From an uncultured Verrucomicrobiae bacterium (GTDB lineage: Bacteria; Verrucomicrobiota; Verrucomicrobiia; Chthoniobacterales; Chthoniobacteraceae), in the NCBI GenBank assembly GCA_963769025.1, contig CAVYKI010000003.1, forward strand, positions 864,001 through 928,000: 64,000 nt of DNA, given 5' to 3'. The translations under genes were made by a program, and so were the position numbers. Positions 33,265 to 62,271 of the stretch are shown piece after piece. How positions within the stretch are numbered: position 1 is the stretch's first letter; every line of letters starts with the position of its first letter. The notes below the pieces were generated by a model. It was given only the letters and a program-made list of their open reading frames with translations. It made no database searches and was not told the DNA's origin.

Positions 33265-34118
33265 AAATCATACCCTCCTTCATCACGCGACGGCGTTTCA
33301 TTTACGGCTGCCTCGCGCTCGGTGCGGGTGCGGCCTCATGGACGCGGTTCATCGAGCCATGGTGGTTCAAGATCGCGAACCATACGGTGCCGCTCGGCCT
33401 CGGCGGGGAGCCCCTGCGAGTTTTGCAGCTCTCCGACATGCACGCGGACCCGATGCCTTTGTCCTATCTGGCGAAGACATTTCGTGCCGGCCTCGCGCTG
33501 AAGCCCGATCTGATCTGCGTGACGGGCGATTTCATCACCGAGAAATTCGACCTGTGGAACGAATACGCCGCGCTCCTTGCCGAGCTTTCCGCCGCCGCGC
33601 CGACATTCGCCGTTCTCGGAAATCACGACGGCGGCAAATGGGCTTACCGCCCCGGCTGGCACCATGGCTACCCAGACACGAAGCCCATCCGCGCGATGCT
33701 CGACACCGCACGGATCTCGCTGCTGCACAACCGCCGTGAGCGCCTCGCAATCCGCGGCCACGCGCTCGACCTCGTGGGCCTTGGCGACTGGTGGGCGGAT
33801 GAAATGAATCCCGGCGCCGCATTCTCCGGCTGGAAGCGCGAGCCGGGCGTGCCGGTGATTCTCCTTTCGCACAATCCCGACACGAAGGAGCGCCTGCTGC
33901 CATTCGGGTGGGAAGTGATGCTCAGCGGTCACACGCATGGCGGGCAGCTCTCGCTCCCATTCGTCGGCGAACCGTTCGCGCCGATCCGCGACAAGCGTTT
34001 CGTGCGCGGCCTGTATCGCTGGGAAGATCGCTGGCTCCACGTCACCGCCGGAGTCGGCGCACTGCACACGGCGCGCTTCAACTGCCGCCCCGAGGTGAGC
34101 CTGCTCACGCTCACTTAA
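33261..34118 (+). CDS. YaeI/YkuE-like metallophosphoesterase
   Basis: TRRRF leader, SDMH, GDF, GNHD, HNPD, GHTHGGQ, RFNCRPE. Confidence 0.92.
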   Translation: MKIIPSFITRRRFIYGCLALGAGAASWTRFIEPWWFKIANHTVPLGLGGEPLRVLQLSDMHADPMPLSYLAKTFRAGLALKPDLICVTGDFITEKFDLWNEYAALLAELSAAAPTFAVLGNHDGGKWAYRPGWHHGYPDTKPIRAMLDTARISLLHNRRERLAIRGHALDLVGLGDWWADEMNPGAAFSGWKREPGVPVILLSHNPDTKERLLPFGWEVMLSGHTHGGQLSLPFVGEPFAPIRDKRFVRGLYRWEDRWLHVTAGVGALHTARFNCRPEVSLLTLT

Positions 34119-35485
34119 CCGTAGCGCAGCGCCTGGATGGGATTGAGTTTCGCCGCCTTCACCGCGGGAAAAAGGCCGGCGACGATGCCGACCACGACGC
34201 TGAAGGCGAAGGCGAGGAGCATGCTCTCCGCGACGATCACGGGTGCATTTTCACTTGGGGAAACGCTGACGATGATTTTGATCAGCAGGGCCGAGGTGAG
34301 CAGTCCCATGAGCCCGCCGATGATGGCGATGACCGTGCTCTCGACGAGGATCTGCGTGAACACATTGAAAAAGGTCGCGCCGATCGCCTTGCGGATTCCG
34401 ATCTCGCGCACGCGCTCGGTGATGCTCGCGAGCATGATGTTCATGATACCTATCCCGCCCGCGATGAGACTGATCGCGGCGATGATTCCGCCGCTCATGC
34501 GCGCGTTGCGGATCGCCTGGTTGATGCTCTCCAGGTTGTTCTCCTGCGTGGCGAACATGAAATCCTCGATGCCGTTGTGCGTGGCGAGAAGGACGTTCCT
34601 CGCCTGGCCGAGCGCGGCATCCATTTCGGCGAGATCGGTCACCTTCAGGTCGATGTCACTGAGCGTGGCATCGGGAACGTTGTTTGTGCCGCTGGCGGCA
34701 CGGAAGCGGAGCCACATCGTGTTCATGGGGATGTAGGCGGTCAGGTTCTTGCGCTCGAAGGCCCACGTGCTCCCGCTGCTTCCTCCGCGGTAGCCCGGGC
34801 GGCCGCGTTCGACGAGATGCTTCTTCGCCTCCTCTGGATGCGCTCGGGCCAGCTCGCGTTTCCGGCGATCCTGCTCGCTCTCGTAGTGCTGGAACATCCC
34901 GACGATGGTAAAGACCTGATGGTTGATCTGGATGTGTTCGCCCAACGGCACGACCTCGCGCCCGAGCTGTTCCGGCGAGCCGAAGAGCGCGTCGCGGATG
35001 CCGGTGCCGATGACGCAGACGGCGCTGGCGTTCTCCTCGTCGATCTCGTTGAAAAAGCGGCCGTGCTCGAGGACGTGGAGATTCATGTCGAGCACGACGG
35101 GCCACACACCGACCAGTTCGGCCGGCTTCATCCGAACTTCACCGCGGGAGAGGATTGCCTTTTCCAGCGCCATCTCCGGCGACACCATGCGGATGAGCGG
35201 TGCGCTCCGCTTCAGCGCCTCCACGTCGCGCAGCGTGCGGCCCGGCGCCTGGTCGGCGAGATGGCTCTGCCAAACGGGGACCGGCGCCTCGCGGGTGAGC
35301 GCCTTGTCGAGTCCGCCGAGCGCGATCATCGCCTCCTTCATCCCGTTCTCCATGCCCTTCACGATCGCCGCCATCGCCACGAGGCTCGAGACGCCGAGCA
35401 CGATGCCCAGCATCGTGAGGAGCGATCGGAACTTGTGCGCGAAAATCTCGCGCAGGCCGACGATGATGGCATTCAGGAAGGACAC
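34115..35485 (-). CDS. MacB-type ABC transporter permease
   Basis: RSLLTMLGIVLG, GGIGIMNIMLASITERVREIGIRKAIGA, LNPIQALRY. Confidence 0.95.
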   Translation of the reverse strand: MSFLNAIIVGLREIFAHKFRSLLTMLGIVLGVSSLVAMAAIVKGMENGMKEAMIALGGLDKALTREAPVPVWQSHLADQAPGRTLRDVEALKRSAPLIRMVSPEMALEKAILSRGEVRMKPAELVGVWPVVLDMNLHVLEHGRFFNEIDEENASAVCVIGTGIRDALFGSPEQLGREVVPLGEHIQINHQVFTIVGMFQHYESEQDRRKRELARAHPEEAKKHLVERGRPGYRGGSSGSTWAFERKNLTAYIPMNTMWLRFRAASGTNNVPDATLSDIDLKVTDLAEMDAALGQARNVLLATHNGIEDFMFATQENNLESINQAIRNARMSGGIIAAISLIAGGIGIMNIMLASITERVREIGIRKAIGATFFNVFTQILVESTVIAIIGGLMGLLTSALLIKIIVSVSPSENAPVIVAESMLLAFAFSVVVGIVAGLFPAVKAAKLNPIQALRYG

Positions 35486-35533
35486 GGTTTTCTTTTTCTG
35501 AAAAAGCCGCCCGTCGCGCAACGGCGCGCCTAG

Positions 35534-37009
35534 CTAGCCGTAGCGCAGCGCCTGGATGGGATTGAGCCTGGCCGCCTTGATGGAAGGGAAGAGCCCCGCG
35601 AGGACGCCCACGCCCACGCTGAACGCGAATGCCAGCGCCATGCTCTCGACGGTGATCACCGGCGTGTTCTCCGTAGGCGACATCGCCACGAGGATCTTCA
35701 CGAGCATGCTCGACGCGAACAGTCCCGCCAGCCCGCCGATGATGGCGATGACCACACTCTCCACGAGAATCTGCGTGAACACATCAAAGAACGTCGCGCC
35801 GATCGCCTTGCGGATTCCGATCTCCCGCACGCGCTCCGTGATGCTCGCCAGCATGATGTTCATGATTCCGATGCCGCCGACGAGCAGGCTGATCGCGGCG
35901 ATGATGCCGCCACTCATTCGCGCATTGCTGATAGCCTGCGTGATGCCCTCCGACCAGTTCTCCTGCGTGCGGAATGAAAAATCCTCGATGCCCTTGTGCG
36001 AGTGCATCAGGACGTTCTTCGCCTGCTGCAGCGCCTCGTCCATTTTGTCGATGTCCGCGATTTTGATGGAGAGCGTGGAAAGGCGCGGATCGGGAACGAA
36101 CTCGGCGGTGGCCGAACTGCCGCTCTGGCTGCTGCTGGAACTCGAGCTGCCGCCGCCGCCGCGACTCCCGCCGGATGAGGAACCGCTGCCGGACGAGCCG
36201 GTGGCCGCGCGGAACCTCAGCCACATCGTGTTCAGCGGGATGTAAACCGTGTTGTTCTTCAGATCGAAGACGAAGCCGCCCGGCGATCGGCTGCCGCTCT
36301 TGCTCCCGCTCATGCTTCCGAAGCCGCGGCTGCGCTCGGGGCCACCCTTTGTCTCGGCGGGCTTGTCCGTCTCCATCGAGCGCATTTTTTTGTCCTGCTC
36401 GCTCTCGTAGTGCTCGAACATGCCGATGATTTTGAACCGCTGGCTGTTGATGTTCAGAAACTCGCCGACGGGATTGATCACGCGCCCGATCTGTTCCGGC
36501 GAACCAAAGAGCGCGTCGCGGACCGCGGTGCCGATTACGCAGACGTTGCGCGCGTGCTCGTCGTCGAGGTCGTTGAACATGCGGCCGTGTTCGATGACGT
36601 GCTGGTTGAGTTCGAGTGCATTGGGCCAGGTGCCGAGAAAATACCATGGATTGTAGCTCTTCACGCCGCGCGAGAGGGTGATGCTGCGGACGCGCATCTC
36701 CGGGACGACCATCGTCACCAGCGGCGCGCTGCGGATGAGCGCATGGACGTCGTCCATCGTCGTGCCCACCGCCTGGTCGGCGAGGTGCTGCTGCCACACG
36801 GGGATGTCCTGTTCCTCGACGCGCACTTTTTCCAATCCTCCAATGGCGATGAGCGCCTCCTTCATCCCGTTTTCCATGCCCTTCGTCAGCGCCGACATGG
36901 CCACGAGGCTCGAAACGCCGAGAATGATGCCGAGCATCGTGAGGAGTGAACGGAATTTGTTCGCCCAGATTTCCTTGAAGCCGACGGCGATGGCGTTGAA
37001 CCAATTCAT
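35534..37009 (-). CDS. MacB-type ABC transporter permease (paralogue)
   Basis: Same motifs as the downstream permease, with Ser/Gly-rich inserts. Confidence 0.95.
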   Translation of the reverse strand: MNWFNAIAVGFKEIWANKFRSLLTMLGIILGVSSLVAMSALTKGMENGMKEALIAIGGLEKVRVEEQDIPVWQQHLADQAVGTTMDDVHALIRSAPLVTMVVPEMRVRSITLSRGVKSYNPWYFLGTWPNALELNQHVIEHGRMFNDLDDEHARNVCVIGTAVRDALFGSPEQIGRVINPVGEFLNINSQRFKIIGMFEHYESEQDKKMRSMETDKPAETKGGPERSRGFGSMSGSKSGSRSPGGFVFDLKNNTVYIPLNTMWLRFRAATGSSGSGSSSGGSRGGGGSSSSSSSQSGSSATAEFVPDPRLSTLSIKIADIDKMDEALQQAKNVLMHSHKGIEDFSFRTQENWSEGITQAISNARMSGGIIAAISLLVGGIGIMNIMLASITERVREIGIRKAIGATFFDVFTQILVESVVIAIIGGLAGLFASSMLVKILVAMSPTENTPVITVESMALAFAFSVGVGVLAGLFPSIKAARLNPIQALRYG

Positions 37010-37010
37010 C

Positions 37011-37042
37011 GGAACGCGGAGCGCGGAACGGGGAACGCGGAA
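37011..37042 (+). repeat. Heptamer-periodic repeat (inverted copy)
   Basis: GGAACGC GGAGCGC GGAACGG GGAACGC GGAA. Confidence 0.92.
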
Positions 37043-37113
37043 GGAAGACTCCGCGCAGAGCGCATGAGGTGATCTGAAAGGTGAAACAAAAGGCGCATTC
37101 GGTTCTGCGTTTG

Positions 37114-37518
37114 TCAGGCGTTCGGCTTCGGCTTTTCCGCGTTCCCCGTTCCGCGCTCCGCGTTCCTGGGGCCTTGTCGGGCTGTGTTGATCGAGGCGAC
37201 CGCGATGGCGACAAGTTCGTTGGATTCCCTGAGCAGGTTTGCGGACTTTGCTGCGGCTGTCTTTCCGCTCTCGGTCAGCAACTCGATCCAATAACCGGAT
37301 TCGTCGGCTTCCTCTTCGACGATTCCCATTTTCGAGATGAAGTCGGCATTGGACCTCGCACGTTTCGCAGTCCGGTAGTTCGCACCCGCAGATGTGCCGG
37401 ACCGCAACAATTGTCGCCCGAGAATCCGCGCGGTTTCATCCTTCGGAAGGCCTTCGACAAACGAGATGACTTCGAGCGCGAATTTCTTCGTTCGTTGCTT
37501 CAAATCTGTTGGCGGCAT
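37114..37518 (-). CDS. Four-helix bundle protein (23S rRNA IVP / TIGR02436-like)
   Basis: DLKQRTKKFA, QLLRSGTSAGANY, DFISKMGIVEEEADESGYWIEL, LLRESNELVAI. Confidence 0.93.
   Translation of the reverse strand: MPPTDLKQRTKKFALEVISFVEGLPKDETARILGRQLLRSGTSAGANYRTAKRARSNADFISKMGIVEEEADESGYWIELLTESGKTAAAKSANLLRESNELVAIAVASINTARQGPRNAERGTGNAEKPKPNA
37135..37166 (-). repeat. Heptamer-periodic repeat (copy 2)
   Basis: Plus strand TTCCGCGTTCCCCGTTCCGCGCTCCGCGTTCC. Confidence 0.92.
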
Positions 37519-37525
37519 GGCTGGA

Positions 37526-38293
37526 TCAGGTGCTCGGTTCCGAGTTTTCCGCGTTCCCCGTTCCGCGCTCCGCGTTCATCATAAATTTCGGCCCGGCGTT
37601 TTGGCCGGCGAGCCTGGCATCCACGCTGGCGGCGATCTTGCCGTCGCGGATTTCGATTTTTCGTGGGGTGACAGCCGCGATTTCCGGGTCGTGCGTGACC
37701 AGCGCGATCGTGCGGCCGCGGTGGCTCAGGTCGTGGAAGAGCCGCAGGATGGTCTCGCCGGTGTGCGAGTCGAGGTTGCCGGTCGGCTCGTCGGCAAAGA
37801 CGATTTTCGGATCGTTCACCAGCGCCCGTGCGATGGCGGCGCGCTGCTGCTGGCCGCCGGAAAGTTCCATGGGCCGGTGCTTCGCGCGGTTTTCCATTTC
37901 CACCAGCCGCAGCGCCTCCATCGCGCGGTCGTGGCGCTCGCGGGCGCTCGCGCCGGCGTAGATCATCGGGAGCTCTACGTTCTGGAGGACGCTCAGCTTC
38001 GGCAGCAGATTGAAGAACTGGAAAACGAATCCGATTTTCTGATTCCGGATGCGCGCGAGCTGGCGCGACGAGGCGGTGGAAATCTCCGTGCCGTCGAGCT
38101 TGAAGCTGCCTTTCGTCGGCGAGTCGAGACATCCGAGGACGTGCATGAGCGTGGACTTTCCGCTGCCCGAGGGACCGATGATGGAGATGAATTCGCCGCC
38201 CTCGATGTCGAGGTCCACATTGTCGAGGGCGCGGATTTCCTCGCCACCGAGGTGGTAGATCTTGCTGACGCCGCGAAGTTCGATGAGGGCCAT
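37526..38293 (-). CDS. ABC transporter ATP-binding protein (LolD/MacB-type)
   Basis: GPSGSGKST, LSGGQQQR, ADEPTGNLD, VTHD. Confidence 0.96.
   Translation of the reverse strand: MALIELRGVSKIYHLGGEEIRALDNVDLDIEGGEFISIIGPSGSGKSTLMHVLGCLDSPTKGSFKLDGTEISTASSRQLARIRNQKIGFVFQFFNLLPKLSVLQNVELPMIYAGASARERHDRAMEALRLVEMENRAKHRPMELSGGQQQRAAIARALVNDPKIVFADEPTGNLDSHTGETILRLFHDLSHRGRTIALVTHDPEIAAVTPRKIEIRDGKIAASVDARLAGQNAGPKFMMNAERGTGNAENSEPST
37547..37576 (-). repeat. Heptamer-periodic repeat (copy 3)
   Basis: Plus strand TTCCGCGTTCCCCGTTCCGCGCTCCGCGTT. Confidence 0.92.
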
Positions 38294-38304
38294 GTTCCGA
38301 GGGC

Positions 38305-39579
38305 CTAACCCGGAGCCCCTCCCTTTCCGGGTCCGGATCCCCCGGGCCGCGGCGCGCCCTTTTCTCCTCCACTCTTGTCGTCGCCCTTTTTGCCTCCCGG
38401 TTTCGCCGCGGCGCCGAATGCCTGCTGCACCTGGCCCGCGTCCTCCGACGGCGTGACGAGCGAGACGGTCTCGCCGCCCTCCAGTCCTTTCGTCACCTCC
38501 GCAAAGTCGTAGTCACTCACGCCAATCAAAATCGGAACACGCACAAATTTGTCGTCCTGCTTCACGTAGGCGAACCGGTCGCCCTTGTCGGTGAACACCG
38601 CGGCGAGCGGGATCGCGACAACGTCGTTGGCAGACTGGAGAGGAATGTTGAGGTTCGCCGTCATGCCCGGGCGCAGGCCGGACTTCTCGTCGTTCTTCAC
38701 GATGATGCGCGTGGAAAATCCCTTGATGCCGTTCTTGATCGTCGCCTGCGGCGCGATGCGATCGAGGCGGCCCTGGAGCTTGAGCCCCGCCACGGCTTCG
38801 ACTTCGATCTCGACCTTCTGGTTCACCGTCATGCGCGTCACGTCGGCCTGGTTGATGTGCGCGTTGATGATGAGTTCGCTAAGGTCGGCGATGGTGAGCA
38901 CCTCGGTGCCGCTGTTCACGCCGCTCGCGCCGGACACGGCCTGGCCGACGGACACGGGGCGCGTGAGGATGGTGCAGTCAAAGGGCGCGACGATCTGCGT
39001 CTTCACGAGCTTGTCCTCGACGAGCTGCAGCGCCTTCTCGGACCGCGCGAGGTTGTTCTTGGAAATCTCATAGGCGTTCTTCGCCACCTCCAGTTCGTTC
39101 GCGGTGTTGTCGAAGACCTCCTTGGAAACCAGCTTGCTGTCGAAGAGGTCCTTGTTGCGGTTGAAGCTCAGCTCGACTTTTTCCATCGCGAGCCGCGCTC
39201 CGGTGACCTGCAACCTTGCCCCTTCGATCTCGATCATCCGCTGCGCCTTTTCGGTCTGGAGATCCGTGTCATCGAGCGCGAAGAGCAGTTCGCCCCTCTT
39301 GAGCTTGTCACCGATGTCCACCGTCAGCGTCTCGATGCGCCCGCTGACCTCCGGCCGCACGGAGACCTGCTCCGCCGGGGTGATTTCGCCTGCGGCGCTG
39401 ATCGCAAAGTTGATGTTGCGCGTGCCGGCGACCGCCGTGGTTGCGCGCGAGGGTTTCTTTCCGTGCTCAGCGGCGGCCGATTTCTTCCAGAACATCACCG
39501 TCTCCGGCCATTGCCGCGCGGCGAAATACGTCCCCGCGAGAATCACTGCCACAACAAGCCATAAAATCGGGCGCTTCAT
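38305..39579 (-). CDS. Efflux periplasmic adaptor subunit (MacA-like)
   Basis: N-terminal TM, lipoyl halves (VSGRI..GD; IVAPFD), coiled hairpin, LRPGMTA. Confidence 0.93.
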   Translation of the reverse strand: MKRPILWLVVAVILAGTYFAARQWPETVMFWKKSAAAEHGKKPSRATTAVAGTRNINFAISAAGEITPAEQVSVRPEVSGRIETLTVDIGDKLKRGELLFALDDTDLQTEKAQRMIEIEGARLQVTGARLAMEKVELSFNRNKDLFDSKLVSKEVFDNTANELEVAKNAYEISKNNLARSEKALQLVEDKLVKTQIVAPFDCTILTRPVSVGQAVSGASGVNSGTEVLTIADLSELIINAHINQADVTRMTVNQKVEIEVEAVAGLKLQGRLDRIAPQATIKNGIKGFSTRIIVKNDEKSGLRPGMTANLNIPLQSANDVVAIPLAAVFTDKGDRFAYVKQDDKFVRVPILIGVSDYDFAEVTKGLEGGETVSLVTPSEDAGQVQQAFGAAAKPGGKKGDDKSGGEKGAPRPGGSGPGKGGAPG

Positions 39580-39832
39580 CGTTGGTTCGGAGTGCGGATG
39601 GGGTGAGTGATTCTTGGGTGGCTGCGCGCGGAGCGGAAAGAAACAGCATTCCCGCCGGGAGACAAGCCCGACAGGGTAAACCCGGCCCCCTGCCGGATGT
39701 TGCGCGGCACAGGAAAGCCTCAAAGAAAAGTCGGGATGAAAACCTCGGGAGTGTTCACGCTTTCCCACGTGCGCAAACTCGCGCTTCCGCCGAGGCCTGC
39801 GTGCCGGTGCCACAAAAAATCAGAACCTTCCC

Positions 39833-50955: not shown

Positions 50956-53579
50956 CACAGCAGCGACATCTGCGGCGGCATTTCGTCGAGCGCCTTTTTC
51001 GCCGCCTTTTTTCCGCGCGGCTTGCCGTGCTTCGGCGGGGCGGGCGCTTCGGCGAGCGTGGGTTTGCCTTCGGCGTTCAGTTCGTGGTGTTCGAGGTTGC
51101 TCAGGATTTCCTTCGCGCGCGCGATCACTTTCGGCGGCAGGCCGGCGAGGCGGGCGACCTGGATGCCGTAGCTCTTGTCCGCGCCGCCCCGGATGATTTT
51201 GCGCAGGAAGATGATCTGATCGTTCCACTCGCGCACCGCGACGTTGTAAGTTCTTCACGCCGCTGCGCGTGATTTCGAGTTCGGTCAGCTCGTGGTAGTG
51301 CGTGGCGAAAAGCGTGCGGCACTTCATCTCGTCGTGCAGATACTCCGCGACGCTCCACGCGATGCTCAGGCCGTCGAAGGTCGAGGTGCCGCGGCCGATT
51401 TCGTCGAGAATCACGAGGCTGCGCGCGGTGGCGTTGTTGCAGATGTTCGCGGTCTCGTTCATCTCGACCATGAAGGTGGACTGCCCGCGCGAGAGGTCGT
51501 CGTTCGCGCCGACGCGCGTGAAGATGCGATCCGCCAGCCCGATCTCCGCGCTCTTCGCGGGAATCCACGAGCCGATCTGCGCCATGAGCACGAGCAGCGC
51601 GACCTGCCGGATGTAGGTGCTCTTTCCCGCCATGTTCGGGCCGGTCAAAATGAGCAGCCGGTTCGCCGTGTCGTCGAGCGCGACGTCGTTCGGCACGAAT
51701 TTCTCCTCGACGAGCGACTGGTCGAGCACGGGATGCCGCCCGTCCTCGATGCGGATGCGCAGGTCGTCGGAAAGCTGCGGGCGGCAGTAGCCGAAAAGCC
51801 GCGCGGTTTCCGCGAGCGCGCACAGCACGTCGAGCGTCGCGACGGCGGCGGCGGTCTGCTGGAGCGGCGCGAGTTCGCGCAGCACCTCGTCGCGGAGTTG
51901 GACGAAAAGCTCGTATTCCAGCGCCTTCGCCGCGCTCGTCCGCACCGAGGATCTTGCTTTCGACCTCCTTCAGCTCGGGCGTGATGAACCGCTCGCCGTT
52001 CGCAATCGTCTGCTTGCGATGCCACGTCGGCGGCACCGCCGCGAGGTTCGATTTCGTGACTTCGATGAAGTAGCCGAAGACCGACGTGTAGCGGATTTTC
52101 AGCGACTTGATTCCCGTCTCATCGATGACCCGCTGCTGGAGCTGCGCGATCCAGTCCTTGCCCGCGCGCGACGCGGAACGCAGTTCGTCGAGCGGCGCGT
52201 GCCAGCCGTCGCGGAACATGCCGCCTTCCTTCGTGTGCGCCGGCGGCTCGTCCACGATGGCCTTCGTGAGCAGCTCGACGATGTGCGGCAGCTCGTGGAG
52301 CTGCGTGAGCAAAATCGCGGCAAGCGAGTGCGGGGATTTCTGATTTCGGATTTCGGATTTCGGATTTGGCGCAAGCGGATCGCCGGCCGGCGTCTCGCCT
52401 TGGACGTTGGATGTTGCGCCAAAGAGCGTCCCCCCTTCCTTGCGCACCAGCGCTTCGAGGTCCGCGCGGAGCTGCGGGATTTGTTCGAGCGAAGTGCGCA
52501 GCACCTGCAGGTCGCGCGCATTCCCGCCCGTCTGCGTGAGACGGCCGACCGTGCGTTCGAGATCGCGGATGCCCTTCAGCGTCTCGCGCAGATTGCCGAG
52601 GATGAACGGCTCGCCAAGCAGGTCGCCGATGAGGCTCTGCCGCTCGCGCAGCACGGCGAGATCGCAGAGCGGATGCAAAATCCAGTCGCGCAATTTCCGC
52701 GCACCCATCGGCGTGTGCGTGCGGTCGAGGCAGCCGAGCAGCGCTCGTGTCGCGCGCACCGCCGCGGCTCTGCGTGAGTTCCAGGTTCGCCTGCGTCGCG
52801 GCGTCCACGATCATGAACTGCGAATTGCGGTACACCGTCAGCCGCGAGACGTGGCTCACGCGAGCGGCGCAGCTCCTTGAGGTATTGCAAAATCGCGCCC
52901 GCGGCACTCTGCGCGGCGTGCATCTCGGCGCAGCCGAAGCCGTCGAGCGACTGCACGCGGAAATGTTCGCGCAGCGCGTAGTACGCCTGCTCGGCGAGGA
53001 AGGTGTAGCCCTCGCGCGGCTGGATGCGCCCCGCGTCGCGGTAAAGCGCGGCGTGTCTCCTCGGCCACGAGCACCTCGGCAGGCTGCACGCGCGCGAGTT
53101 CGTCGGCGAGTTCCTTGTCGTCCGCCAGCTCGGTGAGCGCGGAAATCGCCCGTCGTCAGATCGATGAACGCAAAGCCGTGCCCGCCATTTTTCCCCGGAT
53201 GGATCGCCGCAAGGAAATTGTTCCGCTTCGCATCGAGCATCTGCAGATCCGCGATCGTCCCCGGCGAGACGATGTGCGTGACCTCCCGCTGCACGATCTG
53301 CCCCGGCCGCGGCTCGCTCGTCTGATCGCAGATGGCCACGCGCTTCCCCGCCTTGATGAGCCGCCGCACATAGTTCTCCTGCGCGTGATGCGGGATGCCG
53401 CACATCGGCGTGCCGTTCCGCTGCGTGAGCGCGACATTCAGGATGCCCGCGGCCACCTTCGCGTCGTCGAAGAACATCTCGTAAAAATCGCCGAGCCGGA
53501 ACAGCAGCAGCGTATCCGGCGGCAGGGTGCGCCGGATGCCGTGGTATTGCTGCATCATCGGTGTGAGCGTTTCGGCCAT
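50955..53579 (-). CDS. mutS: DNA mismatch repair protein MutS (multiple frameshifts)
   Basis: [45 protein letters not shown] across several frames. Confidence 0.95.
52335..52369. repeat. Five GATTTCG-type heptamers inside mutS
   Basis: GATTTCT GATTTCG GATTTCG GATTTCG GATTTGG, read as [12 protein letters not shown]. Confidence 0.9.
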
Positions 53580-62178: not shown

Positions 62179-62271
62179 AAACGCGGAGGCGCAGAGACGC
62201 GGAGAGGAGAACGGAAATGGGCAGGCGTTTCGCGACCACTTCTCCCTCTGCGTCTCCGCGTCTCTGCGTTT
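62179..62271. repeat. Nonamer-periodic inverted repeat element
   Basis: AACGCGGAGGCGCAGAGACGCGGAG ... CTCTGCGTCTCCGCGTCTCTGCGTT. Confidence 0.85.

Follow-up and report, generated by a model that had tools for sequence, protein, structure and literature searches.

In the passages of Warrier et al. that deal with it, Coxiella burnetii's intervening sequence (IVS) is a 428-nt selfish element that carries an S23p open reading frame (ORF), is closed by a 28-bp terminal stem, has tandem heptamers ahead of the start codon, and is excised by RNase III (Warrier et al., 2016, PMC4990558). The same passages report that the IVS is horizontally transferred and depends on host transcription and that its ORF is decaying; Leptospira and others are cited there. 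Part of a 2024 paper (PMC11270868) describes ORFs of the IVP (23S rRNA intervening sequence protein) family within rRNA insertions of Candidate Phyla Radiation bacteria and calls the domain uncharacterised. A 23S_rRNA_IVP gene has also been placed between cmr3 and cmr2, that is, within an operon, like the gene described below; the passage in question is silent on flanking repeats (Zhang et al., 2013, PMC3936711). In this study, we analysed a 64-kb stretch of DNA, hereafter the window (contig CAVYKI010000003.1 of assembly GCA_963769025.1, positions 864,001 to 928,000), from an uncultured Verrucomicrobiae bacterium. The genome carrying the window (G000) is metagenome-derived, 83% complete, and in 13 contigs. 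A four-helix-bundle gene of the IVP family lies there between an ABC ATPase gene and a permease gene. We consider it probable (about 60%) that the ~570-bp segment at this junction is a promoter-less IVP gene cassette held in a long hairpin with ~4.5 heptamer copies per arm. By analogy, the cassette is best described as the design of the ORF-bearing 23S rRNA intervening sequences, moved to a junction within an mRNA operon.

The likeness to the C. burnetii IVS, as those passages present it, lies in the same-family gene enclosed in a stem loop (28 bp there, 31-32 bp here) and in the tandem heptamers that adjoin the start codon. The two differ in location, which is helix 45 of 23S rRNA in C. burnetii and the space between the ABC_tran and MacB_PCD/FtsX genes here. 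RNase III excision was shown for the C. burnetii element, whereas it would have to be presumed for this one. In addition, both arms are fully periodic here, a third arm is present, and the gene is under purifying selection.

The segment is bounded by the ABC ATPase gene (37526..38293, minus strand; ABC_tran, E 6.7e-35) and by permease 1 (35534..37009, minus strand; MNWFNA...; Pfam MacB_PCD and FtsX), a separate gene with its own ATG. The four-helix-bundle gene (23S_rRNA_IVP/TIGR02436 by profile matches; 37114..37518, minus strand) encodes 134 aa. A 31-nt string, GAACGCGGAGCGCGGAACGGGGAACGCGGAA, occurs exactly three times in the window (0 expected from 100 shuffles). Arm A (37547..37577, minus strand) comprises 4.4 heptamer copies (GAACGCG GAGCGCG GAACGGG GAACGCG GAA) and lies within the ATPase frame. 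The second direct copy, arm B (37135..37166, minus strand; 31-nt core 37135-37165), lies within the 3' end of the four-helix gene. The inverted copy, arm C (37011..37042, plus strand; 31-nt core 37012-37042), ends 1 nt ahead of the permease ATG. Arms A and C are complementary over 31/31 nt (37547-37577 and 37012-37042), and arms B and C form a 32-bp perfect hairpin (37135-37166 and 37011-37042) with a 92-nt loop. This B-C spacer (37043..37134, minus strand) holds the last 6 codons and the stop of the four-helix gene, followed by 71 non-coding nt. Tandem Repeats Finder (TRF) assigned the arms a period of 7 and 4.4-4.7 copies. Exact string search and repeat finder agree with a preliminary description of this DNA, made from the sequence alone, which had listed three ~32-bp copies of period 7 with the copy at 37011 inverted. 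That description had missed a longer direct repeat of 52 nt (88% identity; 37114-37165 versus 37526-37577), which consists of the arm plus 21 nt and extends to the stop codons of the ATPase and four-helix genes. Ten matches to the arm with at most 3 mismatches were found in G000, 7 of them outside the locus.

The encoded protein matched PF05635 (56.2 bits; cut-off 33.8), its sole Pfam match, and TIGR02436 (79.5 bits; cut-off 24). Over residues 6-114 it matched the sequence of a chain of PDB 2rld (E 1.8e-17), an entry deposited with five chains. Together with the matches to ABC_tran and to MacB_PCD and FtsX in the neighbours, the PF05635 match bears out the identities first proposed for the three genes. 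Q, R, and E residues that are invariant across 26 aligned genus members are all kept here, and so is a nearly invariant S. In the N-x-x-E motif given in the consulted passage of PMC3936711, the E is replaced by T; this position varies within the subgroup. The ratio of nonsynonymous to synonymous substitution rates (dN/dS) between this gene and its copy in a congener, G010, was 0.07-0.11; on this measure the four-helix protein is under purifying selection. The GC content at third codon positions (GC3) was 0.68 for the four-helix gene, 0.66 for the G010 copy, and 0.84-0.87 for the flanking genes.

The same junction was compared across the genus, which was sampled with 30 genomes; the orthologous operon was present in nine, including G000. 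The ATPase and the permease are separate genes in 9/9 operons, and the permease start MNWFNA is kept in the orthologues of the 8 congeners (84-87% identity). The four-helix gene is at the junction in 2/9 operons (G000 and G010) and missing from 7/9. The proposal that aligned orthologous operons might reveal an empty site was borne out by G003, G015, and G042, in which the ATPase stop overlaps the permease start as ATGA; the ATPase tails there are ...PKFQMNAENGKP, ...PKFQMSTEGGKP, and ...PKFDIGTNAP*, respectively. G014 and G004 have a 53-nt spacer with degenerate heptamers, that is, arm relics, at both ends and no gene. G005 (L018:2986-3538) has a DUF433 and DUF5615/PIN-like pair (toxin-antitoxin-like) in place of the four-helix gene, and the heptamers CGCATTC CGCGATC CGCGTTC stand ahead of its permease ATG. 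An unrelated 145-nt insert lies between the ATPase stop and the permease ATG of G024 (L021). This insert has its own inverted ends and is flanked by a ~10-nt near-duplicate (ACGGACAACC / ACGGAAAGCC) of the empty-site sequence. G010 carries a four-helix gene 75% identical to that of G000 in the same three-arm layout, in the order ATPase, arm, gene, arm, loop, arm, permease. Most congeners lack the segment at this junction, which marks it as a discrete unit.

These comparisons also bear on the coding tails and on the ends of the segment. The ATPase terminates in ...PKFMMNAERGTGNAENSEPST and the four-helix protein in ...QGPRNAERGTGNAEKPKPNA; the final ~16 codons of the ATPase (NAERGTGNAENSEPST*) come from arm A plus the sequence behind it. 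The tail NAERGTGNAE, to which the preliminary description drew attention, is present on both proteins. It is incidental, since the G010 arm, translated in a different frame, yields RSAERGTRK; the shared tail is thus a by-product of translating the arm. The hexamer GATGAA can be seen on the minus strand at 37580-37575 and 37010-37005, as first noted. The ATPase tail contains ATGAA in G003 and ATGAG in G015, and both genomes have ATGAA at the permease start, ~22 nt apart. Judged from these sites, both ATGAA copies are host codons that were already present at empty junctions, and the ATPase and permease were never fused. GATGAA as a target-site duplication of an insertion, which is also a criterion for a transposon or a miniature inverted-repeat transposable element (MITE), was rejected, as the copies pre-exist. 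Of the mobile or intervening element without a transposase that had been envisaged, the discrete, transposase-less unit missing from 7/9 operons is upheld; the target duplication is not.

The association of gene and arms extends beyond this junction. An arm-pair score of at least 17 was used as the call of inverted arms. Inverted short-period arrays stand on both sides of all three (3/3) IVP genes of G000, and the unit differs from gene to gene: GGAACGC, GGAAGAT, and GGAGACTT/GGGAGACG. For the second G000 cassette (C2:334758), the two flanks are non-syntenic in congeners; hence, it has no comparable junction. In the genus, ~100 PF05635 matches over the cut-off were found in 27/30 genomes; 93 were fetched and 91 were analysable. 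Inverted arms reached at least 17 in 73/91 loci and at least 19 in 67; 58 also passed a periodicity filter. The flanks of most four-helix genes therefore carry inverted repeats of the type that the preliminary description suggested looking for. At random positions of G000, none of 300 reached 17 (maximum 16), and a second set gave 0/150. Both flanks were called for 65 of the 73 armed cassettes of the genus; 56 of these 65 were co-oriented with both neighbours. The three-arm layout of the window is a minority form: a direct repeat (score at least 17) was present in 16/91 genus loci and a downstream hairpin in 8/91. A wide set was drawn from one-genome-per-species contigs and consisted of the best 80 relatives of the window IVP protein, 78 of them analysable; arms of at least 17 were called in 43/78, with period 7 in 41/43. 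The control for this set, which paired mismatched flanks from different loci, was leaky: since unit types are shared among related loci, 7/160 pairs reached the threshold. The arrays vary little in size, and their medians are 4.3 and 4.6 units.

Arm type follows protein relatedness. The more identical the protein, the more its unit resembles GGAACGC (Spearman -0.56, n=61, with non-independent points). Six close relatives (L160, L161, L162, L168, L169, and L170) were inspected by eye. Arms of the GGAAYGC/GGAGYGC type are clear on both sides in five of the six; the downstream arm of L168 is unclear. The downstream arm ends ~12 bases or fewer from the next start codon in the five clear cases. The neighbour pairs of the six relatives are ABC_tran/MacB_PCD, FabA-like/LpxA-like, PhoU_div/PHO4, CN_hydrolase/PAD_porph, DNA pol III beta/AAA_23, and HATPase_c/Response_reg. 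One relative belongs to Abditibacteriota, and the others belong to Verrucomicrobiota or to bins otherwise labelled. Because close relatives with related arms sit at this and five other junctions, gene and arms appear to travel together between unrelated operon junctions and phyla. As far as these sequence comparisons go, a loop enclosed by arms is the normal habitat of the IVP family, also inside ordinary operons. A literature search to which subscription journals were external returned no report combining the IVP family with repeats or heptamer repeats; the general architecture is not found in print within the literature searched.

Within the region 36800-38500, promoter-like sites were absent on both strands and terminator-like sites were absent on the gene strand. 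Read-through from the operon promoter would account for transcription of the cassette gene, and its translation would be coupled to the displaced ATPase stop, because its ATG lies 7 nt past this stop. In the transcript, arm C, the 32 nt just upstream of the permease ATG, would pair with arm A or arm B. For a 606-nt RNA, the predicted fold was -245 kcal/mol (z -4.3), and the minimum-free-energy structure paired A with C. A search of 36800-37800 against Rfam gave no family over threshold; the best hits were far sub-threshold plant microRNA hairpin models. The arm duplex would be an RNase III substrate, as in the ORF-bearing 23S rRNA intervening sequences, and cleavage would set the four-helix message free and sever that of the operon. 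G000 has an RNase III gene (G000:C3:1075383-1076039). A GTTGAGA heptamer array (G000:C3:1075217-1075245) stands ~140 nt upstream of this gene, which may be coincidence. On the analogy with the rRNA elements, we tentatively prefer RNase III processing of the arm duplex as the mechanism, at somewhat less than even odds. A role of the arms in single-stranded DNA or in recombination is about as well supported and is a possible alternative.

In 14 arm families, 63 columns had changed on both arms with Watson-Crick pairing kept, 61 showed changes that only break pairing, and 365 were invariant. This pattern indicates that the arms keep their complementarity while the sequence shifts, through compensatory changes. 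The 5' arm was purine-rich at 40/41 wide relatives and 43/67 genus loci. Both strands of an inverted repeat give the same reading; the bias thus belongs to the hairpin rather than to the gene strand. A more speculative idea, which we regard as doubtful, is that the four-helix protein is a specific reader of its own heptamer array. As an oligomeric ring in which each subunit takes up about one 7-nt unit, it would bind the single-stranded G-rich arm as RNA or DNA, and through this partnership of protein and array the arms would be maintained and spread. Hints in this direction are the arrays of ~4-5 units, the unit type that tracks protein relatedness, the G-rich/purine-rich 5' arm, and the five-chain entry 2rld.

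Several observations weigh against the cassette reading. In the permease tree, for which the paralogue served as root, G000 splits off ahead of a six-member clade that includes G010 (support 98/97), and the two carriers are not sisters. The synonymous divergence (dS) between G000 and G010 is 1.7-2.0 for the four-helix gene and 0.55 for the permease. Separate acquisitions could be read from this gap, but two things weaken that reading: a third carrier exists, and the lower GC3 of the four-helix gene may alone raise its dS. The third carrier, L160, is a member of Verrucomicrobiota outside the genus; identity to the G000 counterparts is 72% for the gene that it has at this same ATPase/permease junction, 82% for the ATPase, and 78% for the permease. 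The junction may have been occupied since ancient times with repeated loss, or one site may have been entered repeatedly. The counts from the genus and from the wide set were taken across kin and are thus non-independent. Among 70 distinct arm pairs, 61 mismatches would be G·U in the sense RNA and 56 would be G·U only in the antisense (p 0.71), and 138 are of other kinds; this lack of a G·U strand bias gives no sign, in the sequences compared, of selection on an RNA stem. Moreover, gene-less hairpins that have arms of the same kind outnumber the gene-bearing ones, and the arms could be a resident structure that genes enter.

The last point leads to the rival that survives best, though we judge it rather unlikely: the periodic-arm hairpin would be a structure at the DNA level that is resident at this junction, for example a hot spot of recombination or repair, in whose loop small genes are captured, and the arms would not belong to a cassette. 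Inverted pairs of period-6-to-8 arrays number 35 in G000; in 29 of them the loop is short (11-176 nt) and gene-less. At the junction itself, the basal relatives G014 and G004 hold arm relics without a gene, and G005 holds its DUF433 and DUF5615/PIN pair at the same place, with heptamers ahead of the permease ATG. A resident hairpin also fits a site after ...TYRQSS in a DUF1553-like gene, where an in-frame hairpin has a different unit in each of 5 genomes: CGGAACG, CGGAAAC, CGGAAGT, CAGTGCT, and CGGAATG at L146-L150 (G000, G012, G001, G004, and G014, respectively). This site points to fast concerted change or repeated replacement. The unbiased arm mismatches and the mutually unrelated loops are further points in favour of a resident hairpin. 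It accounts less well for the related arm units beside close protein relatives at six junctions, one of them in Abditibacteriota, and for the arms at ~80% of IVP genes, compared with a single DUF433/DUF5615 pair as the other cargo seen here.

Gene-less hairpins of the GGAACGC type are located at G000:C2:21041-21196 (L004/L146), C9:1206774-1206908, C9:1205816-1205944, and C12:382926-383020. Pairs of this type lie in frame within a DUF1553-like ORF and a radical-SAM-like ORF, and another sits exactly in the space that separates a permease stop from the start of an ABC ATPase. When the loops of 5 GGAACGC-type hairpins were compared, no two were related (scores within the shuffle range), and the 92-nt B-C spacer of the window has no likeness to the other GGAACGC-type loops of G000, again within the shuffle range. 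Copies of a MITE were rejected as an explanation, since the hairpin loops share no internal sequence. The commonest gene-less hairpin family has the octamers ACGCAGAG / TCTCTGCG (for example, C3:136406/136463, C10:472963/473047, and C12:225701/225783); no IVP gene with such arms was found in the G000 assembly. A stretch of 2.2 kb at G000:C3:614649-616867 has a cluster of six CGCCAAGA/CTTGGCGT octamer arrays, both direct and inverted.

Dispersed repeats of this kind invite comparison with other known elements. In REPtrons, which consist of repetitive extragenic palindromic (REP) elements and the genes of REP-associated tyrosine transposases (RAYT), inverted copies of a short repeat flank a gene, and further, gene-less copies are scattered through the genome. 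The window gene is likewise flanked by inverted copies of a repeat dispersed in G000. In contrast to RAYT, the window protein has no HUH/Y1 nuclease domain (PF05635 is the only Pfam match), the arms are tandem 7-mers whose unit differs by locus, and the loops of the dispersed copies are unrelated. Rickettsia palindromic elements are in-frame, MITE-like insertions, and the gene-less hairpins of G000 with the same arm type resemble them in lying in frame within ORFs; unlike them, the G000 copies have no internal sequence in common, and a target duplication was not seen. Avd, the accessory protein of diversity-generating retroelements (DGRs), is a small, basic four-helix-bundle protein whose fold we take to be related to that of the window protein. 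A DGR was rejected here, as no match to the reverse transcriptase family PF00078 was found in G000, at its 83% completeness.

It is improbable that the gene is an ordinary resident accessory gene with a REP-like stabiliser or attenuator hairpin and no mobility. The purifying selection, the sense orientation, and a segment without a transposase are what such a gene would show. Its absence from 7/9 orthologous operons, its GC3 of 0.68 against 0.84-0.87 in the neighbours, and the position of its closest relatives in unrelated operons of other phyla argue against it. An assembly artefact, in the form of a mis-join at the exact 31-nt repeats, is very improbable. The repeats are as long as a word size common in assembly, and G000 is incomplete and in several contigs, as stated above; against this, the order is the same in the independent assembly G010, the gene is at this junction in L160 as well, and a 209-nt public contig without differences spans 37038-37246 (inner end of arm C, loop, arm B, and gene). 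Other public metagenome joints across the cassette, with 20-27 letters on the shorter side and 85% likeness, were not used. Scarcely credible is the preliminary suggestion that an intervening element splits a MacB-type fused gene, with GATGAA as target duplication and removal restoring the fusion: the 570 nt from hexamer to hexamer are indeed a multiple of three and would join in frame, but G003, G015, and G042 hold two ATGA-overlapping genes with the ATGAA/ATGAG copies already in place, and the genus has no fused orthologue.

The operon as a whole lies on the minus strand in the order HlyD-type adaptor, ABC ATPase, four-helix gene, permease 1, and permease 2. Its first gene (38305..39582, minus strand; Pfam HlyD_D23 and HlyD_3) encodes an HlyD-family membrane-fusion (adaptor) protein. 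Permease 2 (34115..35521, minus strand) is a paralogue of permease 1 and served as the outgroup of the permease tree. The NCBIfam matches of the ATPase are to nucleotide-binding domains of the MacB/LolD type, under the equivalog cut-offs. The ATPase and permease are thus MacB/Lol-like, yet, unlike the fused MacB transporter, they are encoded separately in all nine operons. Elsewhere in the window, a GGATTTC array of 4.9 copies (52334-52367; G000:C3:916334-916367) and a CTCTGCGT array of 3 copies (62246-62269; G000:C3:926246-926269) were noted; TRF gives no partner arm for either.

The locus ties the IVP family, which is large and widespread and which the consulted part of PMC11270868 presents as still functionally uncharacterised, to the unexplained short-period inverted repeats that fill G000, including some that lie in frame within proteins. 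It also accounts, in annotation, for strange low-complexity ends such as NAERGTGNAE on proteins that are otherwise conserved. The 570-bp unit, with natural empty sites as controls, is a concrete object to test. If the four-helix protein does read its own array, IVP cassettes, rRNA intervening sequences, and the gene-less periodic-arm hairpins, also those in frame within ORFs, would be products of a single, so far unrecognised kind of transposase-less mobile element, and this element would target the junctions of co-translated genes.

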